This document shows, one piece after another, positions 4,619 to 30,735 of a stretch of 32,000 nucleotides of DNA; the stretch's first letter is position 1; every line of letters starts with the position of its first letter. The stretch lies in assembly GCF_001308265.1 (NCBI RefSeq), contig NZ_CP012023.1, forward strand, positions 602,932 to 634,931, read 5' to 3'. Below the pieces are notes generated by a model. It saw nothing but the letters and a program-made list of their open reading frames with translations, was not told the origin of the DNA and made no database searches. Origin of the DNA: Celeribacter marinus (GTDB lineage: Bacteria; Pseudomonadota; Alphaproteobacteria; Rhodobacterales; Rhodobacteraceae). The position numbers were made by a program, and so were the translations under genes.

Positions 4619-4622
4619 AGCC

Positions 4623-5582
4623 CTATGCCTGACCGAATTTTTGAATGCGCGCCGCGCGCAAACGTGCAAAATCGTCACCCGCATGATAGCTAGAGCGCGT
4701 CAAAGGCGTGGCAGACACCATTAAGAAGCCTTTGTTATAGGCGGTTTTCTCGTAGGTCTTGAACTCTTCTGGCGTCACAAAGCGATCCACCTTGTGGTGC
4801 TTTGGCGTAGGTTGAAGGTACTGACCGATGGTGAGAAAATCGATATCCGCCGCGCGCATATCTTCCATCACTTGTGTGACGGCTTGTTTGTCCTCACCGA
4901 GGCCAACCATGATGCCGGATTTGGTGAACATTGTCGGATCGATTTCTTTGACGCGCTGCAATAGGCGCAAGGAGTGGAAATAGCGCGCGCCAGGGCGCAC
5001 TTCAGGGTACAGACCCGGCACGGTTTCAAGGTTGTGATTGAACACATCGGGTTTGGCCGCAACCACAACTTCCAACGCGCTATCATCACAGCGGATAAAG
5101 TCGGGTGTCAGAATTTCAATCGTGGTGTCAGGTGCGCGGTGACGAATGGCGCGGATGGTTTGCGCGAAATGCTCGGCCCCGCCGTCCTTGATATCATCAC
5201 GGTCCACGGAGGTGACAACCACGTGTTTCAGACCCAGCTTGGCGACAGCATCCGCCACGCGGCCCGGCTCGAATGCATCCAGATCCTCGGTCGGTTTACC
5301 TGTCGCAATGTTGCAAAATGAACAGGCCCGCGTACAGACTTCGCCCATAATCATCATCGTCGCGTGACCTTGCGACCAACATTCGCCCGCGTTCGGACAT
5401 CCCGCCTCTTCGCACACTGTGACCAACTTGTGCTCGCGCATGATCGCATGGGTTTTCTTGTACCCGTCCGATGTCGGAGCCTTGACCCTGATCCAGTCCG
5501 GTTTTTTGGGTTGCGCATTATCAGGGCGACGCGCCTTTTCAGGGTGGCGTTGCTCGGGAATTTTAAGATCACGTGGCGGCAT
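4623..5582 (-). CDS. lipA: Lipoyl synthase
   Basis: Auxiliary cluster motif '[13 protein letters not shown]' and radical-SAM motif '[10 protein letters not shown]'. The ATG at 5580-5582 is preceded by aaggagg at a 5-nt spacing. The 527-aa track ORF is an upstream over-extension. Confidence 0.93.
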
Positions 5583-17617: not shown

Positions 17618-18238
17618 ATGGTTAAAAAACGCGGCTATCACCACGGCAATTTGCGTCAGGCTCTCGTCGATGCAGCACTTGGGCTGATCGAGGAAAAAGG
17701 TCCGACCGGCTTCACCCTTTCAGAGGCGGCGAAAACCGCCGGTGTGACCCCTGCTGCGGTCTACCGCCATTTTGAGGGCCGCGAAGATCTGATCGCGGAG
17801 ATCGCCCAACAAGGCTATGAGGTATTCGCGGACTTGCTCGATTACGCCTACTCAACGGGTCAGCCCTCCGCGCTGGCCAGTTTCGAGGCCGTGGGGCGCG
17901 CCTATCTGGCCTTTGCCCGCAAATATCCGGGGCATTATGTGGCGATGTTCGAAAGCTCGATTTCGATCCAACGCACGCCGGACCTCTACAAGGTCGCGAC
18001 CCGTGCGCATGGCGTTTTGGAACATGCCGCCGAAGAGCTGTCAAAGCACATTCCCGCCGAAAACCGCCCCCCGCCACAGATGTTCGCCGCTCACATCTGG
18101 GCGATGAGCCATGGCGTTGTCGAACTCTTTGCACGCAACAGCCCCGGCACCAAAAGCCCCTTCCCGCCCGAAGATCTTTTAGAGACCGGTATCGGCATCT
18201 ATTTGCGTGGATTGGGGTTGTTGCCCACGGATAGCTGA
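17618..18238 (+). CDS. TetR/AcrR-family transcriptional regulator
   Basis: N-terminal HTH 'FTLSEAAKTAGVTPAAVYRHFEGREDL'. The gene starts 5 nt after the ppk2 stop. Confidence 0.9.
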   Translation: MVKKRGYHHGNLRQALVDAALGLIEEKGPTGFTLSEAAKTAGVTPAAVYRHFEGREDLIAEIAQQGYEVFADLLDYAYSTGQPSALASFEAVGRAYLAFARKYPGHYVAMFESSISIQRTPDLYKVATRAHGVLEHAAEELSKHIPAENRPPPQMFAAHIWAMSHGVVELFARNSPGTKSPFPPEDLLETGIGIYLRGLGLLPTDS

Positions 18239-18287
18239 CAGCGCGCGCGACGAGCGACACCTGACAACAAACCCCATTATCCAAACG

Positions 18288-18318
18288 AAAAAGGCCACCC
18301 GCAAAGGTGGCCTTTTCC
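18288..18318. terminator. Bidirectional hairpin terminator (stronger on the minus strand)
   Basis: aaggccacc (18291-18299) pairs with ggtggcctt (18306-18314). On the minus strand the stem is followed by tttttcgttt; on the plus strand only by tttt. Confidence 0.7.
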
Positions 18319-18353
18319 AATTCTGATATCCAGTAAAGCGGATTAACGCTTAG
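18312..18353. repeat. Left border repeat: displaced native rpsI 3' end (candidate attL)
   Basis: The left tract cttttccaat...cagtaaagcgg attaacgcttag matches 29743-29793 (cttttccaat...cagtataagcga...attaacgcttag). The 12-nt core at 18342-18353 is identical and contains a stop codon plus 'KR' codons on the minus strand. Confidence 0.55.
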
Positions 18354-18403
18354 CTAAGTTAGTATCTTTATTAACATATTTATATCAATATGTTACGCTA
18401 CTA

Positions 18404-18423
18404 AAATGCTTCATGTAAATAAT
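18404..18423. repeat. Perfect 20-nt direct repeat aaatgcttcatgtaaataat (left copy)
   Basis: Identical to 29680-29699. It is followed by a second atgtaaat sub-repeat at 18424-18431. Confidence 0.85.
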
Positions 18424-18463
18424 ATGTAAATCATCCACCGCGCATGCTTTGAAAAGCTGTTAG

Positions 18464-18886
18464 CTAACTGGAACGTGCTTTCGTAACAAACGCAACAGCC
18501 TTGTCCAACTCGCCAGCTATCGCAGCCTGTTTAAAAGCGTCAAGCACGCCAGCAACATCGTCCAACTTGTCCACAAATACAGCGTTACTTTTGCCGTTAA
18601 TGTTCAAAACGCGACTGCCGTAACGGCACTGCACATAGTAACCCGCGTCTTGCTCAAAAAACCAAGCGCGTACCCGCTTTTCATGCTCAACGCGTACGCG
18701 CTCACCTGCGTCATTTGTCTGCCAGCGCTTCGATTTTACCGTATATTCGTCGCCAGCCAAAACAGCAGCAAGCACCCTGCCCTGTTCTTCAATCGCCGCA
18801 ACCAGCTTTTCACGTCGTGCAAGTACGGGGTCTTGTTTCACAGTACGTTGCACGGTCTTCAAGTTCAGTTTTGCAATATAGCTCAT
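18464..18886 (-). CDS. Island hypothetical protein (140 aa)
   Basis: Clean ATG-initiated ORF. I recall similar ~140-aa proteins in other integrative islands but cannot verify this. No motif recognised. Confidence 0.55.
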   Translation of the reverse strand: MSYIAKLNLKTVQRTVKQDPVLARREKLVAAIEEQGRVLAAVLAGDEYTVKSKRWQTNDAGERVRVEHEKRVRAWFFEQDAGYYVQCRYGSRVLNINGKSNAVFVDKLDDVAGVLDAFKQAAIAGELDKAVAFVTKARSS

Positions 18887-18954
18887 TTCAACAGCTCCTA
18901 ATATTGAATGCTGCCGCTACTATATTTTCAGACCAAAAGCATAACGACCTGAAA

Positions 18955-19734
18955 TCAGATGTATTTTTCTACCTTTGAAAAGTAGATTGTACGGGTCGGT
19001 ACAGAACCGAATTCTCTTTCATACCTGCCTACTCCCCCCATGTAGAGGCCATAGTGAAAAATATTCAAGTTCCTGTCAGTTCCGAACATTGTTTTTGTAT
19101 TTTCATCAAGCACTGTTTGGCCATTGAGCTTAGCTTTATAGAAGCCGTCGTTGGCCCAATGCACATCCAAATCGATAGTATTCCATCTGCCGAAAATATC
19201 ACTGCTTTTCGCAAGTTTGACCTTTTCCCTGCCAGTAGCAGTTGCAAACTCAGCGTAGAGCCAACTCACAGACTTCTGCCAACCCATCACGTTAACCATT
19301 AGCGGAACGTTAGGTGCACCTTTTTCAAAAAATTGAAAAATGTGGGTAAAGGGTCCTCCAATACGTTGATTGCTAGGTAGGAAGAAACTGATTGAGTATG
19401 AGGCGCGTTGATTCATTTCACCACCTAAGTCCATCCTCTCATACCGTTGCCGATCAGTTTGGCAGTCGACACCGCCACAATCTCCATGCCTCAATTCAAA
19501 ACGTTCAAGCTCGGAACTCGAAGCGGTTCCGGTAAAGTCCGGCACAACAGAATATGCATAATTAGCTGTAGAATTTCGTTCGTGCAGTGTCCAATTTCCA
19601 AATGCATTTTTGGGTGACCCGCGTGTGATCAGAGATCCATTTCCACCTACATTTTCAGAAACACATCCAGCTAGGCTGACGGTTGACGCCAACGCTCCGG
19701 TTACGAACCCACGCCTACCCAATAACATTGCCAT
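18955..19734 (-). CDS. Putative secreted lipoprotein, concanavalin-like / polysaccharide-lyase-like fold
   Basis: From Met28 of the track ORF the protein starts 'MAMLLGRRGFVTGALASTVSLAGC', which reads as a twin-arginine-like signal plus lipobox LAGC. 'FELRHGDCGG..CQTDRQRYE' resembles the N-terminal strand motif of the heparin-lyase-I-type polysaccharide lyase family (from memory). Confidence 0.45.
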   Translation of the reverse strand: MAMLLGRRGFVTGALASTVSLAGCVSENVGGNGSLITRGSPKNAFGNWTLHERNSTANYAYSVVPDFTGTASSSELERFELRHGDCGGVDCQTDRQRYERMDLGGEMNQRASYSISFFLPSNQRIGGPFTHIFQFFEKGAPNVPLMVNVMGWQKSVSWLYAEFATATGREKVKLAKSSDIFGRWNTIDLDVHWANDGFYKAKLNGQTVLDENTKTMFGTDRNLNIFHYGLYMGGVGRYEREFGSVPTRTIYFSKVEKYI

Positions 19735-19917
19735 ATACCCATCTAAATATTTGATCTTGTTTCCATAATGCACAACCCGCATTCGCAATGCAACGCGGGA
19801 ACCCGACGCACTCACAGCAGTGCAATGGAGCCGGAAATAGTCCTCCTAGTTCGCTATTTCAGAAACATCACCACCTTTGCTGACAAAGGATAAATACCTG
19901 CGAAAGGAACCGCAGTT

Positions 19918-20547
19918 ATGTTGCAAAGGAAAATCAATGCAGCTTGGGAGTACTGGCTAGAAAAGGACGATTGGAACGTTTTTGCGACGTTGAACTTTGG
20001 CCATCTGTCACTTTTGGAAGGCAATCGAAGCGACGCAGCTGGAAAACTTTGGCGCAGCTGCTTGTCTACAGTCGACCGCGCCGTTTACGGCCAAACAAGA
20101 AAGAACCAGCCTCGCTTTAATCGCGTCGCATTTAGACACAGTGGGGCAAACGGAACGAACCCGCATGTCCATATTCTACTAAGATCACCTATTCCAACGC
20201 ATGAATTCTGCGTGGCGCTTAACGCAATATGGGCGACGAAGTTTGCTCCCGCCGCAAATCCTGTAAGCAACTCCATCGCCCCAATTATCACTGTCAAAGG
20301 CGCAATAGGTTACGGACAACACGAAGAATTTAGGAACGACATTGGTGCTTTTGACGACAGGCTAAGTCACAGCACTTTGGGGCCAGCGCATCATGTTCGC
20401 GCTGATGCTCTGCAAAGGCTCCATGCTCAGGCATCTAAGGCAAATTTAGTTAAGGCACGATTGGCATTGCCCGATCATATTAAAACTACTCAGGCAAATT
20501 TTGATCGACGCGAACGTATGAGGGTTGCAGCACTGCTGTGCGTTTAG
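19918..20547 (+). CDS. HUH-motif Rep-like protein (putative rolling-circle replication initiator or relaxase-like nuclease)
   Basis: Motif-1-like 'VFATLNF', HUH motif 'NPHVHILL' and downstream Tyr candidates ('AIGYGQHEEF'). 209 aa. Confidence 0.45.
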   Translation: MLQRKINAAWEYWLEKDDWNVFATLNFGHLSLLEGNRSDAAGKLWRSCLSTVDRAVYGQTRKNQPRFNRVAFRHSGANGTNPHVHILLRSPIPTHEFCVALNAIWATKFAPAANPVSNSIAPIITVKGAIGYGQHEEFRNDIGAFDDRLSHSTLGPAHHVRADALQRLHAQASKANLVKARLALPDHIKTTQANFDRRERMRVAALLCV

Positions 20548-20683
20548 ACCTAGCATCTAGCACCACTAAGAATTTTTGCATGTGGCTTGGTTTTCCAAGT
20601 CACATCCTTGTTGTGCGTAAAACAATTAACACAAAACACATCAGTTCAAACCGACAACGGTAAATACACAGAGGCATTAGACG

Positions 20684-20971
20684 ATGACACTACTTGAAAC
20701 GACATACAGCCATTTGCGCAAAGCCGGACTTGTTAGCTGCGCGGAAGCGTTCAGCACCAGTTATTTGGGCAAGAACAAAAACTGGTACGCTTTCCAAACG
20801 CACAGCGAGCGCGATTTTAGCGTTGGCGCTGCTGTGCAGTGTTTGCGCTCAATACGCTCCAATAAAGCGCTTGCTGGCTTGGACACACAGCAAAGAGCGG
20901 CGCTGGATGGAGCTGAGCGTGATTTGCTGGCCCATTTGAACAAAATGTACTTGGTAGCAGACGTGATCTAA
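20684..20971 (+). CDS. Island hypothetical protein (95 aa)
   Basis: ATG-initiated ORF with the same orientation as its neighbours. No motif recognised. Confidence 0.45.
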   Translation: MTLLETTYSHLRKAGLVSCAEAFSTSYLGKNKNWYAFQTHSERDFSVGAAVQCLRSIRSNKALAGLDTQQRAALDGAERDLLAHLNKMYLVADVI

Positions 20972-21118
20972 AATGTTATAGAATTACTAATCCATAACAT
21001 TGTCACTCAATCTCAAGCAAAAACAGTGACTTGCTGAAATTTCAAAATCAGGTCGTTTTGCGAAATGTTATATATTACAATCACTTACAACAAAACCACA
21101 TGTTGTAGGGATAAGATA

Positions 21119-21697
21119 ATGAAACAAGCCAAGCTCCTATCAGATGCTGAACGCAAACGCCTTGCCGCAGTGATCGACAGCAAGCGCTACGCAACGCGCA
21201 ACCACACAGCCGTAGCGCTCAGCTTTTACGCGGGCCTACGTGCTTGCGAGATTGCTTGGCTGCGTATTGGTGATGTTTTCGAAGCTGGTAGCGCTGTGCG
21301 TGACACGATTTACCTGAGCGCAGCGCAAACGAAGGGCAGCTCGGGCAATACTGTATTGGTGAACAAAAAGCTGGCGACAGCGCTCAAGCGTTATGCTGCT
21401 GCTTACCCCAAACGCCTTCAGCAGCCAAATGTACCCGTCTTGTTCTCCGCAAAAGGATCGGGCTTTACAGCGCAGACGACTGTGAACCTGTTTCAAACGC
21501 TCTACAAAGCCGCAGCAATTGACGGTGCCAGCTCGCACAGCGGTCGGCGTCAATTTGTAACCGAGCTAGCTGACAAAGGGGTAAATGCCCGCGTTGTACA
21601 AGCACTAGCTCGGCACAAGCATTTGAACACGACCATGCGCTACATTGATTTAAACGAAAATAAGATGAGGGCGGCTGTTGAGCTGATCAACTACTGA
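21119..21697 (+). CDS. Small tyrosine recombinase (catalytic domain only, ~192 aa)
   Basis: The ATG at 21119 is preferred (MKQAKLLSDAERKRL...). Catalytic signature: 'GLRACEI' (Arg), 'SSHSGRRQF' (H-x-x-R) and 'ARHKHLNTTMRYID' (His...Tyr). No N-terminal core-binding domain is present. Confidence 0.8.
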   Translation: MKQAKLLSDAERKRLAAVIDSKRYATRNHTAVALSFYAGLRACEIAWLRIGDVFEAGSAVRDTIYLSAAQTKGSSGNTVLVNKKLATALKRYAAAYPKRLQQPNVPVLFSAKGSGFTAQTTVNLFQTLYKAAAIDGASSHSGRRQFVTELADKGVNARVVQALARHKHLNTTMRYIDLNENKMRAAVELINY

Positions 21698-22203
21698 AAC
21701 TTGTGCTGTTGTGCTAGAACGGCAAGCTCTTTGTTTAATTTGGGACTTGCCAAATGTTGACCCCATTTCCAAACGCAGTATTCAGACGTGCAATCAACAA
21801 TTCCCGCTTTCCTCAGTGCTTCAAAGTTTCCCTTACCTATTTTGCTTATGGGCTTTAACTGCTCGACCATAGCGCCCAAGTACCCGTGCTTTTCAATTAA
21901 TCGTTGCGATTTTTTGTCTATTTTTTCAACTGCTATCACAGCATGCCAAATCCGTTCTGCAACGCTATCCTCAACAAGTTGGTTGCCGCTCACTTGCGCT
22001 GGACTGCTGACTTGTGACTGAATAATTCGCACACCAGCATACCGCGCAACTTGACGCATTGCTTCACTGCCTTCTGGACCATGTGCTCTTGACCAAAAGC
22101 CCTCTAACGACTTCTGATCTGTAAGACTATCTAGCTCCGCAATTTCATCAGAGTATTTTTCGCGCAAATCGGACAATGCAGGGAGTGGATCTTTATATAT
22201 CAT
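21691..22203 (-). CDS. Island hypothetical protein (170 aa)
   Basis: ATG-initiated ORF. Its convergent end overlaps the recombinase gene by 7 nt. No motif recognised. Confidence 0.5.
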   Translation of the reverse strand: MIYKDPLPALSDLREKYSDEIAELDSLTDQKSLEGFWSRAHGPEGSEAMRQVARYAGVRIIQSQVSSPAQVSGNQLVEDSVAERIWHAVIAVEKIDKKSQRLIEKHGYLGAMVEQLKPISKIGKGNFEALRKAGIVDCTSEYCVWKWGQHLASPKLNKELAVLAQQHKFQ

Positions 22204-22644
22204 GGTGTGTAGCGCCTTATAACAACGACATTTTCACCAATCACGCTACGCAGAACGCTAGCTCCTTACAACAATTTTCACTATGCCTCTCAACCCCAAG
22301 CGCAACCTTCTCGTGCAGAACATAACGACCAGCATTTACCTGCGTTTTTGACCCAAAACCATGTGCTATCAAGTTAGGCGCACAGGCTTAACTGGCTTTT
22401 TGGCGTCGAGCTTACGTTCTTTACTTTTAAGCTTTCGTGCATTCTTCTCAAAGTCAGTCGTCTGTGCACGTTTGGCGCGTTTCGGCGTGCTTTTTAGTCC
22501 TGCGTTATAGTCCAATATCTCCCATATGTGCAAAATCACCACCTCAAATCTGTAAGTACTTCCCTACTTGAAACTGCGCTGTAAAACTTTTGTCAGCTAA
22601 CAACCCCTTCAAGCGTTAAATATTTATGCACGAAAAATTTACGC

Positions 22645-23274
22645 CTAAAATTCGTCGTCTTCCATCTGCTTTAGAAATTCCTCTAGCCGTGACTTCGCTT
22701 CGCTTGTGTTTTCCCTGTCTGTCCCAGCCGCTTCACGCTCCAAGCCGCGTATTGCCCACTCAACTACGTCAAGCTTTAAGTCTCGCTTCGAGCGTTTATT
22801 GCTCAGCAAACCGCCGCCATCGCTTTCCAGGCTCCTGCTTGTAATAACCATCGGTACTGTACCGGGAGTTAGCCCTAGTGTACTGCTGTCCGTGTCTCTA
22901 TCAAACCAAAGACGCAGCCCAGCATCTGCTGCGATGATCTCATCCAAGTAAACGTGCAGTCGTTCAAAAAGCGTGTCGGCCTGTGCAAAATGCTTTTGCG
23001 CCACCTTGCTCTTGCCGCGCGTACTAGCGCCCTCACCTTTGTTGTAGACAAACGTCGCTTTTCGCAATCGCGCTTCGTATTCCCGCACCTCATCCGGTTT
23101 ATCTTTTAACTCAGCACGCAGCTCTTTTTGATCAGACCAGGCTTGCACGTAACTGGCAAAATCCTCTTCAGTCAACCAAGCTCGCAACTGCCTGTTTTGG
23201 ACAATAGCCCCACCTGCTAGCTTGGCCGCTATCTTGCGCAGTTTCTTTAATCGAACTTCAGGTTTGTGTGCCAT
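22645..23274 (-). CDS. Island hypothetical protein (209 aa, charged and helical)
   Basis: ATG-initiated ORF with a basic N-terminus and an acidic C-terminus ('MEDDEF'). No motif recognised. Confidence 0.5.
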   Translation of the reverse strand: MAHKPEVRLKKLRKIAAKLAGGAIVQNRQLRAWLTEEDFASYVQAWSDQKELRAELKDKPDEVREYEARLRKATFVYNKGEGASTRGKSKVAQKHFAQADTLFERLHVYLDEIIAADAGLRLWFDRDTDSSTLGLTPGTVPMVITSRSLESDGGGLLSNKRSKRDLKLDVVEWAIRGLEREAAGTDRENTSEAKSRLEEFLKQMEDDEF

Positions 23275-23940
23275 AGCTCACCTTCAAACAGTTACTGAGG
23301 TCCATCACATTCGCACCCGCAAATAGAATTCAACCCTTCATAATCGGGTCAGAGCTCGATCCAAACTATCTGCCAGGGAGTAGTTAGCCAAACACAAAAG
23401 AGCACGGTTTTGTTACGCCTGACGCGCAGTACCTGGGTCACTACAACACATGAATCTAGCACCGCGCAATTCACAACCGGCACCTCCATTCACTTACGCA
23501 GCACGCCAACCCAAAACTGGCCGCACGACCTAATTGAAAGTCTAGGGCTGCATGTGCGACAGGAATGGCGCATCCGGCAAACCAGAGATGGCACACAAAG
23601 AAGGCATGATTGATTGAACGGCAGACTAGGCACCTAATGAACTGATGCGCATCATGTTTTACCTTGAATTGCTTCCACGGCTGGCTCATGCTTCAATGAA
23701 ATGACGAAGAAATTTTGATCAGTTTTGTCTTTTTTATAGTTTGGCACATATGAGGTTTTGCATCGAATGACGCGGGTATTTTCCCAAAAGGCGGGGCTTT
23801 GAATAACAATTTTGCCGCGGTATTTGTATATGCTCGAGAGGCAGCGATCCGTCTGGACTTAACCTGGAATCATAATTGGACGAGCTTTTTCCGCCGCACC
23901 CTCAGCATCACTGCGAGGAGAAAAAGCCATCGCACAGGCG

Positions 23941-23971
23941 TTGACAATCATCATACACGGCATCATATGAT
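23941..23971 (+). promoter_or_regulatory. Candidate sigma70-type promoter with overlapping 10-bp palindrome upstream of the three-gene operon
   Basis: TTGACA (23941-23946), a 19-nt spacer, then TATGAT (23966-23971). The perfect palindrome atcatatgat (23962-23971) overlaps the -10 element. The ATG at 24004 follows gaagggg (23991-23997). Confidence 0.3.
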
Positions 23972-24003
23972 ACCACGACAGCATCGTGCCGAAGGGGTGC
24001 GCG

Positions 24004-24360
24004 ATGTCAATTGACAGTGGATTACGCAAGGAGCTTGCAAAGTTTTGCAGTAGTAAGCGGACTTATCGAAGTGACTTTTCACCGACCATGCCAACTCACT
24101 GGTCGCCACAACACGTTAGACATCCCGATACAGGAGAAGCATTCACTGACCCGGGAGCTTGGCGTTTTGTAAAAGATTTGTTGGAAGCCGGGCATCCTGT
24201 TGAAGTAATCACACTCGATAAACCGCCTGGAAAGAAAGGTTACGTCCTAAAGTGCAAAGGCTACTCCTCGGAAATAATCTATATCAAGTTGCAGATTTTG
24301 TCCGGTTTTGTGATCGGCCGGAGTTTTCATGTGAGCGTAGTTAGAGAAAAACAACAATGA
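24004..24360 (+). CDS. Putative toxin, MqsR/RelE-fold-like (weak similarity)
   Basis: 118 aa from the ATG at 24004, which has a good SD. The C-terminal 'IIYIKLQILSGFVIGRSFHVS' resembles the terminal strands of MqsR ('VYLKITVIHDVLIVSFKEK'). The stop overlaps the next start (ATGA), in the toxin-first order of mqsRA. Confidence 0.45.
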   Translation: MSIDSGLRKELAKFCSSKRTYRSDFSPTMPTHWSPQHVRHPDTGEAFTDPGAWRFVKDLLEAGHPVEVITLDKPPGKKGYVLKCKGYSSEIIYIKLQILSGFVIGRSFHVSVVREKQQ

Positions 24361-24851
24361 CAAATAATGTAAATAAAGACACATGTATTGTATGCGGAGC
24401 GGCGGCTGTCGAAATCCAGACAATGACGCAGCAATTCGCTTACGCTGACAAGAACAGGGATGTTCTTTTGACGGCAGATGTACCTGTCGAGCACTGCCAT
24501 GAGTGTGGTGAAATACTGCTTGGAGTACAGGGTCAGATTGCACAGCATGAAGCGGTTTGTAGCTATCTTGGACGCTTGTCACCAGCCGAGATCAAGGAGA
24601 TCCGTACAGGAATGAAGCTCTCACAACTGGCTTTTGCAGAAAGAATAAATGCTGGTGTCGCTTCAGTTAAGCGCTGGGAAACTGGGATGGTAATCCAAAA
24701 CGCATCAATGGACCGTATCTTGCGTCAGGTAAACGACGAGGCCGACATTCCGATGCAAAGACGCGCACGAATTACGCCAGTCTTTAGAACTGAAATTAAG
24801 CCGCACATGCTAGCTGCGTCCAAGTTATTTCAGTTGCGCCCGAGCGGTTAA
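24357..24851 (+). CDS. MqsA/YgiT-family antitoxin (zinc ribbon + XRE-type HTH) with ~39-aa C-terminal extension
   Basis: CxxCG (C10,C13) ... CxxCGE (C47,C50), then 'LSPAEIKEIRTGMKLSQLAFAERINAGVASVKRWETG', which is the CxxCG_CxxCG_HTH architecture of MqsA. Residues 126-164 have no counterpart in the 131-aa E. coli MqsA. Confidence 0.8.
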   Translation: MTNNVNKDTCIVCGAAAVEIQTMTQQFAYADKNRDVLLTADVPVEHCHECGEILLGVQGQIAQHEAVCSYLGRLSPAEIKEIRTGMKLSQLAFAERINAGVASVKRWETGMVIQNASMDRILRQVNDEADIPMQRRARITPVFRTEIKPHMLAASKLFQLRPSG

Positions 24852-24857
24852 CGCAAC

Positions 24858-26705
24858 ATGTATACCATCACATTCTATTCGTACAAAGGCGGCGTCGGAC
24901 GCACCATGGCCTTGGCAAACGTTGCTACGCTCCTCGCTCAGAAAGGCAAGCGTGTCCTCCTTGTCGATTTTGATCTCGAAGCGCCTAGCTTGCCAAATTA
25001 TGGCGGACTTTCTGACCTAGTCATTAAACATGGACTTGTTGACTACATCTCGGCTTATCGAGAGACGGGCAAAGCGCCAGATGTGGCGGAGCACATCTAT
25101 AAATGCCACCAAGACGGCAATCCGATCTGGATAATGCCAGCAGGCGATACATCAACAAAAGACTATTCCAGAAAACTAGCCTCGATAGACTGGCAAACGC
25201 TTTATGACGATGAAAAAGGATATTTATTTTTCGAGGATCTGAAACAACAATGGCAAGTTTTCGAACAAGAGGGATTTGATTACGTCCTTATTGACAGTCG
25301 AACTGGACATACTGATGTTGGTGGTGTGTGCACACGTCACTTGCCGGATTTGGTAGTTGCTATGTATCTTCCGACGATGCAGAACATATCAGGGATGGCG
25401 CCTATCATTGGTGAAATCCGGAATGAAAAGTCCCGAGCTAGCAACCCAGTTGAACTGGTGTTTTGCGCGTCTAATGTGCCGGAACTTGACGATGAGCAGC
25501 AAATACTCAGTGATCTATTGAGGACAGCATCAGATCGGCTCGACTACGAGGCTAATGCACTGAATATTGTCCATCACTATGGCAGCTTACACGTGCTTTC
25601 ACATGCGATCTTCGTTCAAGATAGGCCGAACTCACGCCTTGCTAAGGAATATAATAGCCTCGCGCGCAGCGTCATATCTCACAACTTAGAAGACGCTGAC
25701 GGAGCAAAATTGGCTTTGCAGCGAATTATTCGGGAAGACATTCGCAGCCCTCAAACTAAATCAAAGAATACTCGGGATGAACTTGCGGCAAAGGTTGATC
25801 AAATCTTTTCGAGGCACAGGCATAACAGTGAGATATCAAACCTCGTTGCGCGAGTTCGTTCTGCAATTGGTGACTTCGAAGGTGAAATTTCAGCGTTGAC
25901 CAACGCAATCGAGTTGGGTGACGGAGGGGCCGGTCTGCGCTTTCGTCGAGCTCGTGCGTATCAGGCAATAAACATGACAGATAGGTCTGTCGAAGATCTT
26001 CGGCACATCCTCAAACATGAGAGGGTTACGGGCGCTGAATTGACAGCGGCATTGAGAATGTTGGAAAGGACCGACAAACAGTATGATGATGTATTAGATC
26101 AGCTTCTGGAGCGTAGCGATTTAGATCTTCCAATGTTAAATTCGATAGCGGAGGTTGCTCAACGAAACAGGCGACACCTTAGAAAGTTTGCGGACCATTT
26201 AACCCGCACTATAGCACGCAAAGAAGAATCGGAAAAAGAGAGAGCCTACGCCAACCATCACCTTGGACTTGCACTTATTGGCTGTAGTCGGTTTGATGAA
26301 GCTGATGCGAAGCTGGATTCAACTTCAGAAGCATCCAAGCTCGACCTGCCGAACAGGTTCAACCACTTCATCGCAATGTGGGGTGCGTCTGGGACGCCCG
26401 ATATAGGTATCGCGCATGAATTGCACGAAGTGATGTCTTTTAGAAAATCTCCAAGAGATGACGCTAACTTCCTGCAATGCCAAGCGGTCATTAACGCTGT
26501 TCTGGGTGACCACAAAGAGGCATTAGCAGCATTGGATCATGCTGATGAAGTTGCACAAAGTCTAGGAGGGCGGATATTTAGTTGCTCCTCCTACCTCTAC
26601 CTTGAAACTGAGGCATTTGTTCAGGAAAATGAGCAGCTTCGCAGTGCAATAAAAGAGAACGATCAGGTATCACTACGTATCTTCAATTCATCCAGTCAAA
26701 ACTAA
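24858..26705 (+). CDS. ParA/MinD-fold ATPase with variant Walker A (KGGVGRT) fused to a C-terminal TPR-like helical-repeat domain
   Basis: 'FYSYKGGVGRTMALANVA' is a deviant Walker A with Arg in the P-loop Lys position. 'VLLVDFDLEAP' is switch-like and 'DYVLIDSRTG' is Walker B. From about residue 330 there are TPR-like units ('RFRRARAYQAINMTDRSVEDLRHIL', 'ANHHLGLALIGCSRFDEADAKLD', 'FLQCQAVINAVLGDHKEALAALDHADEV'). The gene starts 6 nt after the antitoxin stop. Confidence 0.8.
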   Translation: MYTITFYSYKGGVGRTMALANVATLLAQKGKRVLLVDFDLEAPSLPNYGGLSDLVIKHGLVDYISAYRETGKAPDVAEHIYKCHQDGNPIWIMPAGDTSTKDYSRKLASIDWQTLYDDEKGYLFFEDLKQQWQVFEQEGFDYVLIDSRTGHTDVGGVCTRHLPDLVVAMYLPTMQNISGMAPIIGEIRNEKSRASNPVELVFCASNVPELDDEQQILSDLLRTASDRLDYEANALNIVHHYGSLHVLSHAIFVQDRPNSRLAKEYNSLARSVISHNLEDADGAKLALQRIIREDIRSPQTKSKNTRDELAAKVDQIFSRHRHNSEISNLVARVRSAIGDFEGEISALTNAIELGDGGAGLRFRRARAYQAINMTDRSVEDLRHILKHERVTGAELTAALRMLERTDKQYDDVLDQLLERSDLDLPMLNSIAEVAQRNRRHLRKFADHLTRTIARKEESEKERAYANHHLGLALIGCSRFDEADAKLDSTSEASKLDLPNRFNHFIAMWGASGTPDIGIAHELHEVMSFRKSPRDDANFLQCQAVINAVLGDHKEALAALDHADEVAQSLGGRIFSCSSYLYLETEAFVQENEQLRSAIKENDQVSLRIFNSSSQN

Positions 26706-27065
26706 ATTTTGGAAATTGAAGCCGTCTCATAGAAGTTCAGCAACTTGATGAACGCTATAATCTATCTGCAGTCTGGTGCTACCAACGACCGCCCTCTCTG
26801 GGAGCACCAAGGCATCCGATCGCCTAAACAACGACTGCCTGACGTCGGTGCTTAGCTTTGAGTTTGGCTGACAGATTGCAGTTATAAAAGCGAAAAAGTG
26901 CACGGTTTCTTTACGCTTATAATAGATAGATGAGCAGCTTTCGCATGCTTAAACTAGGGTCGCTAAGCCCCCAACCTGCGCCTTCATACGCCAGCATAGC
27001 TGACCGCACCTAAGACGCGCTGTACGCAGCAATTTGACGCCTGTGTGTTACTTCAAAGTTTGAAG

Positions 27066-27116
27066 TTAGCGCATGCGTTTTGCAGCCAGCTCCATCGCTT
27101 CAAGCTTTTTGCGTGC
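27066..27116 (-). pseudogene. Remnant of the 3' end of a second, related integrase gene
   Basis: The minus-strand reading gives ARKKLEAMELAAKRMR*, compared with the intact integrase C-terminus ARRKLDAMQSAAKRRR*. The DNA includes an identical 14-mer tgcgttttgcagcc and roughly 80% identity over ~50 nt against 28220-28270. Nothing upstream is homologous. Confidence 0.5.
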
Positions 27117-27163
27117 CCTGTTGACTACAATCAATCTGGTTAAAGCACAGAAGATCTTTTTGG

Positions 27164-27928
27164 CTAGACTGGCTCAACATGACAATTAGTGAGCTGTCCA
27201 CCACCAAAACCGAACCAAGCCCAATTACCAGTAACGAGATAAACGTCATCCGGTTCTGCATCTATAAGAATATCGACCACGTAACCGCCTTTTAGCAAGA
27301 TACATTCAAACCTGTGGAAGCGAGATTCGAACCGAGCATAGGGGTCAAGTATGCCATTGTGAAGCGAAACGAATTCTAAACGATCCATAAAAACCCCATA
27401 ACGATAATCGCGGTTAAAACGTGGTTTGTTCTGATCGAATACATCCCGCAATTCTCTGTAATCATCAGCTGTATACTTAACTGCTGCATCAAGAGTATCT
27501 CCATGCTCTCGAAATAAACTATATTGTCTCAAGTCACTAAAACCGGTTGACTGAAAGTCAACAAGACTTTCAAATCCAAAACGCCCATAACGCTCAAGTT
27601 CATCTAGAGAACTAAAGCCTGTTTTCTGAAAATCGGCCAACGTTTCGATTCCCTTACTGCTGTAAAGTTCGTACTCTGCAAGGGTTGAAAAGCCAGTCGC
27701 CTCAAATTCAGCCAATGTCTCGAGCCCTGACACCCGATAACGGTCATACTCTTCGAGCGTTGAAAAGCCAGTCGCCTCAAATTCCGCCATAGTTCCAATC
27801 CCATAGTTCTGGTATCGGTTCCACTCAATGATCGATGAAAAGCCACCTTCGGTTCTTACCTTTTCAAAGTAGAAAAACACAGTAGCCGACAGAGCTGCAA
27901 TGGCAGCAAAAGCAAATACCTTCTTCAT
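27164..27928 (-). CDS. Secreted or membrane-anchored tandem-repeat protein (254 aa)
   Basis: The N-terminal hydrophobic 'MKKVFAFAAIAALSATVFFYF' is followed by four 25-aa repeats (G[IL]xT[LM]AEFEATGFSTLxEYxxY...). The 75-bp DNA period is shown by an identical 26-mer at 27684-27709 and 27759-27784. Confidence 0.65.
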   Translation of the reverse strand: MKKVFAFAAIAALSATVFFYFEKVRTEGGFSSIIEWNRYQNYGIGTMAEFEATGFSTLEEYDRYRVSGLETLAEFEATGFSTLAEYELYSSKGIETLADFQKTGFSSLDELERYGRFGFESLVDFQSTGFSDLRQYSLFREHGDTLDAAVKYTADDYRELRDVFDQNKPRFNRDYRYGVFMDRLEFVSLHNGILDPYARFESRFHRFECILLKGGYVVDILIDAEPDDVYLVTGNWAWFGFGGGQLTNCHVEPV

Positions 27929-28219
27929 TTTAGTCCTTTTGGAAAATTTATAGCATCGATACCGACAAGAAACGCTACACTACTGTACAAGGCCGGTAAA
28001 AATTCACCCATCACCGACGATGGGAACCAAGTTTATATAATCGTCACGCTTTTGTTTAAAACTCATTGTCCTAGTCGACCTTGTCAACACCGTATGCAAC
28101 TCAAATCACAAAATAAACGCAGATTTGCACTCCTGCTTTTTGGGGCTTGGCCTTATTAGTCCGTCGCACTTCGAAAACCGCCATCCTATTTTTAACAATG
28201 TCTTGACCTACTCATCTAG

Positions 28220-29614
28220 TCAGCGCCTGCGTTTTGCAGCCGACTGCATCGCATCAAGCTTCCTTCGCGCCCGTTCCGCTTCCGTTGCGCCAGTCGCCGC
28301 CACGCCGCGCTGCACAGCCCTGCCCTCCGTACTCAGCAATACGTCCACGTCCATCAGCATGCCTTTGCGCACGTAATGATCATCAATTTGCTTTCGGCTC
28401 GTACCCATATTTTCAGCCAGCATGTCGTACGTTGCTAAATTGTAGCCCATGTCCCTAAAGCGTTCTTCCGCATAGTAATGCCTCAAGCTGTAAGCCGTGC
28501 GTCGATCACCATTTTCGTCATACAGCAAGCCAGCTTCTTCAAGCATTTTGGGCAAAGTTTTATAAAATCCGTTGTTCTGCTTGCCGCTTGCATCACAAAA
28601 CACCCAATCGTTTGCATCAGTATGCCCCGTAAGCTTGCAAAGCTGTTGATAATGAACGTTCAAAAAGTAATGTGATCGTACAATCCGCGTGCCCGTTTTA
28701 GTGTTTTTGGGCACAATTATCTCCAAGTACTGCTGGCCCTTATCACTTGTTTTAACTGAAATATCTTTGTGCTTAAGCTGCAAAACTTCGCCTGTGCGCA
28801 TGCCTGTTTCAGCAAGCCATGTAAGATAAAATTTGAGCAGCTGACGGTTATATTTGTGCGCCGAGTTAACCCGCTCGTCGCTTACGCCTCTGCCATCAAC
28901 CCATCGCTGCATGTAATCCTGCAACTCCATGTATTCAGCATGTGAAAACGAAGGACGCCTTTTTGCTGCAATGCCCTGCCGTACAAAAGTGTTTTCAATA
29001 ATCGGCATGTGCAAAATAAGCTTCATGCTGTTCGCCCAGCCAAATATTTCACGCAAAGCGCTCTGCTCCATGTCCATGCTTTTTTTAGCTGGTTGCAGCG
29101 CATGATTGGCGTGTCGTTTGCGCTCAGCTTCGTCCGCCCTCGCCCAATACGTCATGCGCCAGTTCCAATAACCCTGCACAAATGCATGTGTCATCTCGTC
29201 CAGCTTCATAGTGCCAAAATATGGTAGCCAGTAACGCTGTGCGTGTTTCTCGTACCACGTAACGCGTTGCGAAATTCCATTTCTGCCTTTTGCATGTTGC
29301 AATGCTTCAAGCCGTTGCCGCTTATCAGCCCACCAAATCACGTATAAATCTTCAAACGTCAGCTGTTTGACTGGCTCTTTTTTCTTAGCACGCAAGCGCA
29401 AGTCGTCGTATTTGTCCAAAGCGTACCGTCTCGCTTCTTCTAAATCGGTTTCGCCCGTACTTTCCTGTACATAGGTGACCTTGTTTCCATAAACGTCCTG
29501 CATGCCCCGTACGTGTATGCGCATGTGATAAATGGGCCGTTTTGCATGCTGACGATGAAAAAGAATGATTTGGCCGTCTTTAAGCTCGACTTTGTTCAAG
29601 TAACTTTTGCTCAT
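28220..29614 (-). CDS. int: Tyrosine-type site-specific integrase
   Basis: 464 aa. Catalytic signature: 'ETGMRTGEV' (Arg), 'AYSLRHYYA' (R-H box) and 'MGTSRKQIDDHYVR' (Tyr). It is adjacent to the island border repeats. Confidence 0.92.
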   Translation of the reverse strand: MSKSYLNKVELKDGQIILFHRQHAKRPIYHMRIHVRGMQDVYGNKVTYVQESTGETDLEEARRYALDKYDDLRLRAKKKEPVKQLTFEDLYVIWWADKRQRLEALQHAKGRNGISQRVTWYEKHAQRYWLPYFGTMKLDEMTHAFVQGYWNWRMTYWARADEAERKRHANHALQPAKKSMDMEQSALREIFGWANSMKLILHMPIIENTFVRQGIAAKRRPSFSHAEYMELQDYMQRWVDGRGVSDERVNSAHKYNRQLLKFYLTWLAETGMRTGEVLQLKHKDISVKTSDKGQQYLEIIVPKNTKTGTRIVRSHYFLNVHYQQLCKLTGHTDANDWVFCDASGKQNNGFYKTLPKMLEEAGLLYDENGDRRTAYSLRHYYAEERFRDMGYNLATYDMLAENMGTSRKQIDDHYVRKGMLMDVDVLLSTEGRAVQRGVAATGATEAERARRKLDAMQSAAKRRR

Positions 29615-29679
29615 AGCAGTGCCGCCAGTATCATTTCCTTGTAAAACTACTGTAAAAGCAGCAGCATTATCTGTCTATC

Positions 29680-29699
29680 AAATGCTTCATGTAAATAAT
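29680..29699. repeat. Perfect 20-nt direct repeat aaatgcttcatgtaaataat (right copy)
   Basis: Identical to 18404-18423. It lies 65 nt beyond the integrase start codon. Confidence 0.85.
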
Positions 29700-29714
29700 C
29701 TGTCAAACCCATAA

Positions 29715-29750
29715 ACAAAGAAAAAGCGCAGTAAAAACTGCGCTTTTCCA
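29715..29750 (-). terminator. Rho-independent terminator currently serving rpsI (island-side, AT-rich)
   Basis: aaaagcgcag (29722-29731) pairs with ctgcgctttt (29738-29747). On the minus strand the stem is followed by tttttcttt. It lies 35 nt downstream of the rpsI stop. Confidence 0.65.
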
Positions 29751-29793
29751 ATAATTTAGCATTTTCAGTATAAGCGAAAAAATTAACGCTTAG
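29743..29793. repeat. Right border repeat overlapping the functional rpsI stop (candidate attR)
   Basis: This is the partner of 18312-18353. The core attaacgcttag at 29782-29793 includes the rpsI stop codon (29783-29785) and its last three codons. Confidence 0.55.
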
Positions 29794-30268
29794 AGAACTG
29801 GAAGCTCTTACGGGCTTTTGCACGACCGAACTTTTTACGCTCAACAACGCGGCTGTCGCGTGTGATGAAGCCTGCAGCTTTCAAAGCGGCACGCAGTTCG
29901 GGGTTGTAAAGCTGAAGTGCTTTGGAGATGCCGTGCTTAACCGCGCCAGCCTGACCGGAGAGGCCACCACCTTTGACAGTTGCAACAACGTCAAACTCGC
30001 CTTCAACGCCTGCAACCTGCGATGGCTGCTTGACGATCAGCTGAAGGACGGGACGGGCAAAATAAACAGGCATATCTTTGCCGTTTACTGTGACCTTGCC
30101 GGAACCCGGCTTGATCCAAACGCGTGCAACCGCGTCTTTACGCTTGCCTGTCGCATAAGCGCGGCCAAGGGCGTCACGAACGGGTTCACGGGGGGCAGCA
30201 ACTTCGATTGTTGCTTCGCCACCGGCGACGGCATTAAGCTCGTCGAGGGATTTGATTTCATCAACCAT
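29783..30268 (-). CDS. rpsI: 30S ribosomal protein S9
   Basis: '[19 protein letters not shown]' and C-terminal 'RKSFQFSKR'. 161 aa, immediately downstream of rplM. Confidence 0.97.
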
Positions 30269-30270
30269 GA

Positions 30271-30735
30271 TTATGCGCTCCGAGTGTTTTTCTTGTTCAT
30301 GGACTTAACGTCCAGGACTTCGGGCTTTTGTGCCTCGTGAGGATGCTCGGTGCCTGCATAGACGCGCAGGTTTGTCATCAATTGGCGCGACAGCTTGTTG
30401 CCCGGAAGCATACGCTGAACAGCTTTGACCATGAGACGCTCGGGGTGTTTGCCCTCAAGGATCTGACCAGCTGTACGCTGCTTGATACCGCCCGGATAAC
30501 CGGTGTGCCAGTAGTGGATTTTGTCGGTGCGTTTTTTGCCCGTCATCTGCACTTTATCAGCGTTGATGATGATCACGTTGTCGCCCATGTCGATGGACGG
30601 TGTGAATGTGGCCTTGTGCTTGCCACGCAAACGCATGGCGACGATAGACGCGAGACGACCAAGAACAACGCCTTCAGCGTCGATGATGATCCATTTCTTG
30701 TCCACGTCCGCCGGAGTAGCGGTGAAAGTGTTCAT
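30271..30735 (-). CDS. rplM: 50S ribosomal protein L13
   Basis: The protein starts at Met24 of the track ORF ([30 protein letters not shown]...). 154 aa, the canonical L13 N-terminus. Confidence 0.97.

Follow-up and report, generated by a model that had tools for sequence, protein, structure and literature searches.

A candidate three-part module coupling a small basic protein, an MqsA-family protein and a KGGVGR ATPase-TPR protein in Celeribacter marinus

A 32,000-nt stretch of Celeribacter marinus DNA (contig NZ_CP012023.1, positions 602,932 to 634,931; referred to below as the window) contains three closely packed genes, which encode a small protein (gene 1), a protein of the MqsA type (gene 2) and an NTPase of the MinD/ParA fold joined to a TPR array (gene 3). 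A first-pass annotation had interpreted this arrangement as a candidate three-part toxin-antitoxin or defence system, composed of an MqsR/RelE-like toxin, an MqsA-type antitoxin and an ATPase that controls the antitoxin. The locus raises the question of whether the three genes form a unit at all and, if so, what such a combination might do. We found that the genes are passed on together as an obligate unit, accompanied by a putative promoter and operator of their own. The trio probably represents a three-part toxin-antitoxin or anti-phage module that has not been described before, and we present it here as a candidate.

Linkage of the three genes and a conserved operator

Relatives of gene 3 were collected by an alignment scan with one genome per species, which yielded at most 516 relatives among 185,579 species representatives, and linkage was counted in the best 80 of these 516 loci (33–67% identity; individual loci are designated L followed by a number). 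The 80 loci came from approximately 12 phyla, including Alpha-, Beta- and Gammaproteobacteria, Acidobacteriota, Planctomycetota, Spirochaetia and Myxococcota, with further representatives in Latescibacterota, Gemmatimonadota, Nitrospirales, Omnitrophota, Bacteroidota and Binatia. The succession gene 1-gene 2-gene 3, in common order and strand and with overlaps or gaps of a few nucleotides, was present in 73 of the 80 loci. In two more, genes 1 and 2 were found and gene 3 was cut by the end of the contig (75/80 altogether), and in another two a diverged small protein preceded an MqsA-like gene, which was followed by gene 3. The reciprocal analysis, which started from gene 1 in metagenomes, detected gene 2 in each of the 47 loci that had 600 nt or more downstream, and both genes 2 and 3 in 32 of the 33 loci that had 1200 nt or more. 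The recurrent coupling of MqsA-type genes with KGGVGR ATPase-TPR genes, on which the earlier proposal had been made to depend, was therefore near-obligate in both directions. The exception (L144, 3914-4713) has a shortened gene 1 overlapping an intact gene 2 and no gene 3, and may be a decaying copy.

The limits of the unit could be drawn from a blastn comparison with the closest relatives, L090 and L091 (87% identity), in which the aligned block covered exactly 23629-26751 and the flanks were unrelated. Terminal repeats were considered as boundaries of this 3.1-kb unit and were dismissed, as only short, chance-level repeats were present. No conserved fourth gene was detected: the 113 nearest neighbour proteins were spread over 121 Pfam families, and such heterogeneity argues that there is no fourth component. 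Plasmids with complete trios were found in Rhizobium phaseoli and, with a size of 23 kb, in Massilia, and IMG/VR contigs carry complete trios as well. Most copies are single and chromosomal and are located in unrelated contexts. Within the window, genes 1 and 2 share the sequence ATGA as a 4-nt overlap (24357-24360) and genes 2 and 3 are separated by 6 nt (24852-24857), so that the coordinates, the overlap, the gap and the one-strand packing described previously were all found again. The ATG at 24004 is likely the start of gene 1. It was preferred over the upstream GTG because it is preceded by an AAGGGG Shine-Dalgarno sequence (23991-23996) and because the stretch from this sequence to the ATG is invariant among close relatives.

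The sole inverted repeat found in the region upstream of gene 1 is the palindrome GGCATCAT.ATGATACC, a predicted operator, which overlaps the -10 element of a putative sigma-70 promoter. Its core, ATCATATGAT, is located 42 nt 5' of the gene 1 ATG, and the -35 box of the promoter, GTTGACAA, is invariant among close relatives. A generic promoter and terminator scan gave results at shuffle expectation, and a consensus promoter scan missed the putative promoter because of its 19-nt spacer. The operator core occurs as a single copy within the 32-kb window, which alone is not significant; its significance comes from the conservation of its position across phyla. In 45 of 77 loci an exact ATCATATGAT was present between -150 and +10 relative to the start of gene 1, and 64 of 77 had a version with at most one mismatch there, whereas 832 kb of flanking background contained no exact match and 17 one-mismatch matches. 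A locus usually carries one or two copies, located over the promoter. Additional copies of ATCAWWTGAT were observed at the gene 1/gene 2 junction in L010 (~4487), L011 (~4487) and L081 (~5493), and these may act as an internal promoter/operator that uncouples genes 2 and 3 from gene 1 expression. The conservation of the operator implies, as far as can be judged from sequence, that a DNA-binding specificity has been kept with the cassette. It would most simply be read as predicted autorepression by the HTH (helix-turn-helix) domain of gene 2, and the repressor role that the first-pass annotation had assigned to this protein is strengthened accordingly by the predicted operator.

The remainder of the upstream region was analyzed for further genes. 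The closest upstream open reading frame (ORF) of at least 110 aa is located at 22645-23274 on the minus strand, which leaves a gap of 729 nt before gene 1; the earlier description of about 730 nt with no convincing gene was thus accurate, and this gap contains the putative promoter and operator as well as a leader without a coding signature. A plus-strand frame at 23799-24014 remains open in the window as well as in L090 and L092. However, substitutions in this frame showed no clear third-position bias (21/19/28 over the codon positions, compared with 5/7/20 in the gene 1 control), and the frame thus lacks a coding signature. No Rfam match was found for the leader or the upstream region, and a hairpin in the 5' untranslated region was not significant (z = -1.4). 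The idea that these 730 nt harbour a small gene or an RNA was dropped, given the absence of an Rfam match and of a coding signature in 23799-24014.

The three proteins

Gene 2 scored above the curated cut-offs of PF15731 (39.0 bits, cut-off 30), TIGR03830 (68.1, cut-off 61.8) and the TIGR03831 zinc finger (24.4, cut-off 20.2). A profile of 45 gene 2 sequences aligned along the entire protein with E. coli MqsA (3gn5, residues 3-127) at an E value of 1.6e-6; a PDB search with the single gene 2 sequence gave no match, and the family profile was needed. Eleven positions were invariant in the 45 sequences, namely C10, C13, C47, C50, C68, R83, R106, W107, E108, Q114 and L160, among which C10, C13, C47 and C50 are the zinc-ribbon cysteines and R106-W107-E108 and Q114 form the HTH core. 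Gene 2 is an MqsA-family zinc-ribbon/HTH protein, as had been recognized from its architecture. Beyond the MqsA fold it carries a C-terminal tail with the motif FR-x13-15-FxLR (F143-R ... F158-x-L160-R161), in which the conservation of F143 and F158 reaches at least 90% and which usually lies three residues from the C-terminus. The ending -AA occurred in 27 of 74 gene 2 homologues, compared with 2.4% of background ORFs and 0 of 74 in the gene 1 and gene 3 families, and 43 of the 74 homologues ended in -AA, -AS, -VA, -SA or -LA. The ssrA-type degrons of ClpXP are marked by Ala-Ala at the C-terminus, and C-terminal peptides are frequent ligands of TPR domains. Under either reading, degron or TPR ligand, the tail would by analogy be a handle for control of the antitoxin, and the proposal that gene 3 acts on the antitoxin is made plausible by its conservation. 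The zinc ribbon is acidic (isoelectric point, pI, 4.6) and the tail basic (pI 10.8).

At its N-terminus, gene 3 carries a full-length NCBIfam NF047398 (AAA_KGGVGR) domain, which scored 170.6 bits against a cut-off of 90 and covered profile positions 3-189 of 190. An AlphaFold2 (AF2) model (predicted local distance difference test score, pLDDT, 90.7) consisted of a MinD/ParA fold followed by a TPR superhelix and no other domain. In Foldseek searches, the N-terminal domain matched FlhG, FleN, Soj and MinD (target template modelling, TM, scores 0.65-0.79) and the C-terminal region matched the consensus TPR superhelix 8chy, and no solved structure shared the full architecture. Among 74 homologues, K10 of the nucleotide site was present in 73, and G11, G12, G14, R15, D37, D39, E41, D146, R148 and N176 in all 74. 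These include the signature lysine (K10) and the Walker A'/B aspartates (D37, D39 and D146) of ParA/MinD deviant-Walker-A ATPases; the canonical P-loop Lys (KGGxxK[ST]) is replaced by Arg15 in each of the 74 sequences. Gene 3 thus joins a MinD/ParA-fold domain, whose nucleotide site is intact and invariant, to an array of TPRs. Its ATPase core is the best-conserved part of the system (mean column identity 0.7-0.85, compared with 0.34-0.45 in the TPR region), and the protein is acidic (pI 5.3). Two cysteines are invariant in the 74 homologues, C158 (25329-25331) in the switch II region and C541 (26478-26480) in the TPR patch, and C576 is kept in 63 of them. NifH-like Fe-S ligation by gene 3 cysteines was considered and dropped, as C83 is not conserved in the broad family. 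A SecB-type match was found neither in Pfam nor in NCBIfam or PADLOC, and the search for a STAND module gave only an insignificant match to nSTAND_NTPase5 (E = 0.18, 12 bits against 34). The earlier description of a KGGVGRT ParA/MinD-fold protein with TPRs and no effector domain therefore stands in view of the NF047398 match and the AF2 model. The accompanying claim of a STAND sensor logic is reduced to an analogy, because the fold of gene 3 is that of a SIMIBI-class MinD/ParA protein.

A Celeribacter marinus protein identical to gene 1 has been annotated as hypothetical, and gene 1 had no match in Pfam, NCBIfam, PADLOC or PHROGs. An exhaustive profile search defined a family of 488 representative clusters, all of them standalone proteins of 76-173 aa, in which P30, W33, P35, F47, A52, W53, P74, G76, Y93, K95, R106, S107, F108 and H109 are near-invariant. 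The AF2 model (pLDDT 92.3) has two helices followed by a four-stranded meander (alpha-alpha-beta4). Foldseek found nothing at E < 1e-3 in the PDB or in the viral library BFVD: the top PDB matches were weak and NTF2-like (TM 0.2-0.36), and the viral library gave only insignificant matches inside polyvalent proteins. A PDB profile search returned only noise. Gene 1 shows several toxin-like traits, since it is small, basic (pI 9.5; family median 8.8), first in the operon and equipped with an invariant polar cluster.

The first-pass annotation had described gene 1 as MqsR/RelE-like, with a weak MqsR-like pattern in its C-terminal strands. Membership in these families was rejected on the basis of family scans, fold searches and profile comparison. 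None of 130 gene 1 family members matched the Pfam models for MqsR, RelE, ParE, HigB, YoeB, BrnT or DUF4258, the single match among them being to PBECR3 (E = 0.057), and gene 1 itself gave no Pfam match to MqsR (PF15723) at E <= 1. MqsR and RelE were also absent among the 50 best PDB Foldseek matches, although the structure of MqsR (3hi2) is solved. For profile comparison we built an MqsR profile of 33 sequences from an MqsR sequence that was validated at 99% (to P0293; PDB 3hi2_B), and hhalign placed the gene 1 profile opposite it with a probability of 4% over 20 aligned columns (P ~0.01). What survived of the claim is this 20-column local match, in which the gene 1 segment IYIKLQ..GRSF lies opposite VYLKITV..IVSF of MqsR. 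It places Y93, K95 and S107-F108-H109 of gene 1 opposite Y81, K83 and S94-F95-K96 of MqsR, residues that are conserved in both families and of which Y81 and K96 are catalytic in MqsR. This hairpin likeness (Y-x-K...S-F-[K/H]) may be convergence or chance; a catalytic arrangement like that of MqsR is possible in gene 1.

Exchange of the first two genes, defence context and genomic island

In L013, L017 and L005 the ATPase-TPR gene is preceded by a non-MqsA two-gene module instead of genes 1 and 2. The modules of L013 (4098-5001) and L017 (~4066-5001) matched the PADLOC candidate PDC-M06A/B with E values of 7.5e-26 and 1.4e-34, and their PDC-M06B-type protein extends approximately 55-65 aa past the profile. 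The module of L005 (4043-4996) is composed of an unassigned small protein and an XRE HTH protein that matched PDC-M64B/C. Assignments of the small proteins as HicA-like (L013, L017) and Gp49/HigB-like (L005) were dropped, as they had no Pfam support and the modules of L013 and L017 match PDC-M06. By eye, the variant partners end in FxLR-like sequences, a resemblance to which we give no weight as evidence. PDC-M06 also occurs independently as a cassette of two genes, with 497 instances lying inside defence systems, and the fact that it can stand alone favours a role of gene 3 as a controller added to pairs that are self-sufficient.

A further link to defence is provided by L057 (4-10645, a Pirellula metagenome-assembled genome), in which the trio is located between DrmMI and DrmA of a DISARM system, with all genes on one strand. 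The protein in the gene 1 position of this locus (4051-4398) is diverged and was missed by the gene 1 hidden Markov model (HMM). Some other neighbours of the trio matched models for BrxH, type I and type IIG restriction-modification, HerA, TRIP13, MADS and PbeA. The ATPase domain of gene 3 matched the PADLOC candidate PDC-M28B (E = 4.5e-29). In addition, a related KGGVGR-type ATPase forms the N-terminus of a 734-aa protein with a TIR domain-containing annotation on a Sinorhizobium chiapasense plasmid (L082, 3667-6193), which is probably a different conflict system built on a related ATPase. In that locus a 106-aa hypothetical gene precedes the ATPase-TIR gene with a 1-nt gap, and a further TIR gene is located nearby.

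The cassette of the window lies in a region of low GC content (~0.47 over roughly 18-30.5 kb, compared with ~0.58 outside), which contains two integrase genes (Table 1), in agreement with the mobile island described previously. No tRNA was found in the window. Further cargo of the island (18000-30500) includes a polysaccharide lyase (18955-19815), a DUF6641 protein (18464-18886) and ORFs without a Pfam match at 19918-20547, 21691-22203 and 22645-23274. Just 3' of the cassette, a 254-aa ORF on the minus strand (27164-27928) encodes a protein that has a hydrophobic segment in its N-terminal part and contains around four ~25-aa repeats in tandem (..LAEFEATGFSTLxEYxxY..), also without a Pfam match.

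Table 1. Features of the cassette and of the surrounding island (positions in the window)
Feature	Position	Strand	Residues	Remarks
Whole conserved mobile unit	23629-26751	+		Leader, promoter and operator, three genes; ~3.1 kb
Leader kept in close relatives	23629-23940			~310 nt; ~70-85% alignable with L090-L092
Putative sigma-70 promoter	23941-23971	+		TTGACA 23941-23946, 19-nt spacer, TATGAT 23966-23971; read from sequence
Predicted operator palindrome	23959-23974			Core 23962-23971
Gene 1	24004-24360	+		118 aa; ATG start, alternative GTG at 23986
Gene 2	24357-24851	+		164 aa; MqsA family
Gene 2 zinc ribbon	24384-24506	+	10-50
Gene 2 XRE HTH	24567-24734	+	~71-126
Gene 2 C-terminal tail	24777-24848	+	141-164	Beyond the MqsA fold, after a variable-length linker
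Gene 3	24858-26705	+		615 aa; MinD/ParA-fold NTPase and TPR
Gene 3 NTPase domain	24858-25682	+	1-275	MinD/ParA fold
Variant Walker A	24885-24905	+	10-16	KGGVGRT
Gene 3 TPR superhelix	25695-26705	+	~280-615	All-helical AF2 model
Conserved TPR patch	26358-26585		501-576	F501, N502, A506, W508, N537, Q540, C541, F574, S575, C576
Short integrase-family gene	21065-21697			Second integrase gene, inside the island
Tyrosine integrase	28220-29614			Right bound of the low-GC island; adjoins rpsI (29783-30268)

Possible mechanism, alternatives and related systems

The reading that we favour, and to which we give an even chance of being right, is that the trio is a self-contained, horizontally mobile, three-component toxin-antitoxin-like conflict module in which gene 3 serves as a nucleotide switch. 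Dimers of gene 2 would bind ATCATATGAT over the -10 element and autorepress the operon, and the acidic zinc ribbon would neutralize the basic gene 1 protein, which would be a growth-arresting effector and possibly a nuclease acting through the Y93/K95/R106/S107/H109 cluster in its two final strands. The basic tail of gene 2 would dock on the acidic gene 3 protein, contacting either the conserved patch of the TPRs or the interface of the ATPase dimer, and docking at the latter would resemble that of MinE or ParB peptides. Depending on the nucleotide, gene 3 would switch between a state in which the antitoxin is protected and one in which it is exposed and degraded, and the variable TPR surface is a candidate input site for a trigger, for example a protein from a phage. 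Once gene 2 is released or lost, gene 1 would be freed and the operon derepressed, and the outcome may be abortive-infection-type defence and/or stabilization of the carrying element. The complementary charges of the components (pI 8.8-9.5 for gene 1, 4.6 for the ribbon, 10.8 for the tail and 5.3 for gene 3) count in favour of this scheme. Here we infer the toxicity of gene 1, the interaction of gene 2 with gene 3, the trigger and the biological role. A broader version, which we put forward tentatively, is that KGGVGR-TPR proteins are a new SIMIBI class of immune switch, which would plug onto unrelated toxin-antitoxin pairs via the antitoxin tail, sense phage through their TPRs and release a toxin of new fold.

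Several observations weigh against the switch model. Neither by homology nor by fold could gene 1 be matched to any known toxin. The replacement of the P-loop Lys by Arg may mean that gene 3 has little or no hydrolysis activity. Kaur et al. 2020 (PMC7159879) described MinD/ParA-like SIMIBI domains as recurrent effector-position domains of NTP-dependent conflict systems and labelled them "predicted to be inactive"; we count this label on the same side, as gene 3 is also MinD/ParA-like and has Arg in place of the P-loop Lys. The gene 2 copy in the window ends in -RPSG instead of -AA, so that the -AA ending is frequent and not universal. A universal tail motif has no statistical support, as the tail HMM of the MqsA-type proteins gave E = 0.32 with L013 and missed L005 and L017; a single docking motif shared by all partners therefore rests on inspection by eye. 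In addition, most neighbours of the trio are ordinary metabolic genes, no homologue of the gene 3 ATPase was found in cultured phage genomes, and the trio is rare, as is evident from the upper bound of 516 relatives in the species scan.

The trio shares a number of features with E. coli MqsR/MqsA (ygiU/ygiT), including a toxin-position gene that comes first and an antitoxin gene that comes second, a stop/start overlap, a zinc-ribbon and XRE HTH antitoxin that passes curated MqsA models, and a palindrome at the promoter. The operator of E. coli MqsA is of the ACCT-N-AGGT type. The trio, however, has ATCATATGAT in its place, its gene 1 has neither MqsR family membership nor a matching fold, its antitoxin has a conserved extra tail of ~35-60 aa, and the trio includes an obligatory third gene. 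These last features are reminiscent of toxin-antitoxin-chaperone (TAC) systems such as MqsRAC, which are also three-gene operons whose antitoxin, which can be of the MqsA type, has a C-terminal extension absent from two-gene relatives. In TAC systems a SecB-like chaperone binds this ChAD extension, gene 3 plausibly acts by analogy on that of gene 2, and in both cases different antitoxin scaffolds appear to be served by one third component. It is possible that gene 3 likewise shields an aggregation- or degradation-prone gene 2 tail, in which case the trio would be a plain addiction and stabilization cassette and its TPRs would not sense anything. We consider this unlikely. The degron-like -AA ending of the antitoxin extension would suit such a role, and so would the location of the cassette on plasmids and in integrase-bearing islands. 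The same can be said of the extensions on both MqsA-type and PDC-M06B-type partners, which are similar to the ChAD extensions reportedly grafted onto HigA, MqsA and HicB antitoxins in TAC systems. However, the third protein here is a 615-aa MinD/ParA-TPR protein and not a SecB-like chaperone, the toxin family differs, and a strictly conserved nucleotide site suggests a switch and not a passive holder. The fast-evolving TPR surface, the DISARM-embedded copy and the kin ATPases in conflict systems also fit sensing better.

Two other explanations assign different roles to gene 3 or to the whole operon. That its MinD/ParA-like domain is itself the effector, a dominant-negative mimic disturbing cell division or DNA segregation, with gene 2 as repressor and, through its tail, as restraint, and with gene 1 as sensor, adaptor or co-regulator, is in our view quite unlikely. 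MinD/ParA-like SIMIBI domains are the commonest "cell-division related" effector domains in Kaur et al. 2020 (PMC7159879), the ATPase core is the best-conserved part of the system, and gene 1 resembles no known toxin. However, interchangeable two-gene modules, of which PDC-M06 is widely standalone, make gene 3 fit better as an add-on controller, the fusion of the L082 ATPase to TIR, a recognized effector domain, suggests a regulatory role for the ATPase, and gene 1 has toxin-like traits. Kaur et al. treat vWA-MoxR/VMAP ternary systems and kinase or AP-ATPase fusions; MqsA, the gene 1 family and the TPR fusion seen here do not appear in their account, and their domains resemble gene 3 in being described as MinD/ParA-like. 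A non-toxic regulatory or partition-like module, in which gene 3 would modulate gene 2 at ATCATATGAT, as in FleN-FleQ or a ParA-partner pair, and thereby serve maintenance or expression of the element, appears very improbable. It would agree with the best fold matches of gene 3 (FlhG/FleN, Soj and MinD), with the predicted DNA binding of gene 2, whose basic Arg tail is reminiscent of the ParB, ParG and MinE peptides that stimulate ParA-type ATPases, and with the plasmid-borne copies. Nevertheless, the prevalence of single chromosomal copies in unrelated contexts argues against it, as do one or two operator copies over a promoter in place of a centromere array, an invariable Arg where ParA-type hydrolysis needs the P-loop Lys, and an obligatory gene 1, which has no counterpart in partition systems. 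A module that only regulates would also be left without an output, as there is no conserved further gene. Membership among plasmid partition systems (ParA/ParB/centromere) was rejected, the DNA-binder gene lying upstream of the ATPase gene.

With regard to known defence systems and sensors, PADLOC assigned no named system to the trio. PDC-M28 and PDC-M06 appear, in at least part of the Payne et al. 2024 preprint, as candidates without a stated function. Their cassettes were flagged by embedding in known defence systems, as is the trio in L057. However, PDC-M06 is a two-gene cassette, and of the three-gene candidate PDC-M28 only the M28B component matched, with the match limited to the ATPase portion of gene 3. 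Neither gene 1 nor gene 2 matched a component, and the M28B profile lacks a TPR and differs in its N-terminal region. The NF047398 domain type, of which the N-domain of gene 3 is a full-length member above cut-off, is thus found also in PDC-M28B and in the TIR fusion. Similar to STAND/NLR-like sensors (e.g., Avs), gene 3 combines an NTPase with a variable TPR region, a conserved nucleotide site with fast-evolving repeats, and a conflict context. It differs in that the NTPase is of the SIMIBI class with a deviant Walker A and that no effector is fused to it, the presumed effector being a separate small protein held by the antitoxin. No paper was found that describes the trio, "KGGVGR", "PDC-M28" or the combination of MqsA, MinD and TPR, and the trio is unmentioned in surveys of toxin contexts and new defence systems (Gerdes 2024 and 2025, Liu 2026, DefensePredictor 2025). 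Thus, the previous statement that there is no characterized precedent held for the trio itself, but it had missed the MinD/ParA domains of conflict systems in PMC7159879 and the curated NCBIfam ATPase family.

The KGGVGR ATPase domain was already known as a curated, uncharacterized NCBIfam family. New in this work are the conserved predicted operator, the tail motif and -AA ending of gene 2, the module swaps at three loci and the DISARM-embedded copy, and the PDC-M06 and PDC-M28 candidates are now tied to one ATPase family. Should the switch model fail, the obligate trio and its operator would still define a widespread unit worth annotating. If it is true, type II toxin-antitoxin systems would have a third form of control beside proteolysis and SecB-type chaperones, namely a nucleotide-dependent MinD/ParA-like switch. 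A function would also be provided for the KGGVGR ATPase family, in which Arg invariably takes the place of the P-loop Lys, and a toxin-position family of ~490 clusters without known fold relatives would be introduced. The system would be an experimentally tractable, compact and self-regulated cassette of ~3.1 kb, whose 10-bp operator is kept from Alphaproteobacteria to Acidobacteriota, Planctomycetota and Spirochaetia. If the trio is indeed an immune switch, it would represent a nucleotide-gated counterpart of chaperone-addicted toxin-antitoxin systems and a non-STAND route to NLR-like sensing.

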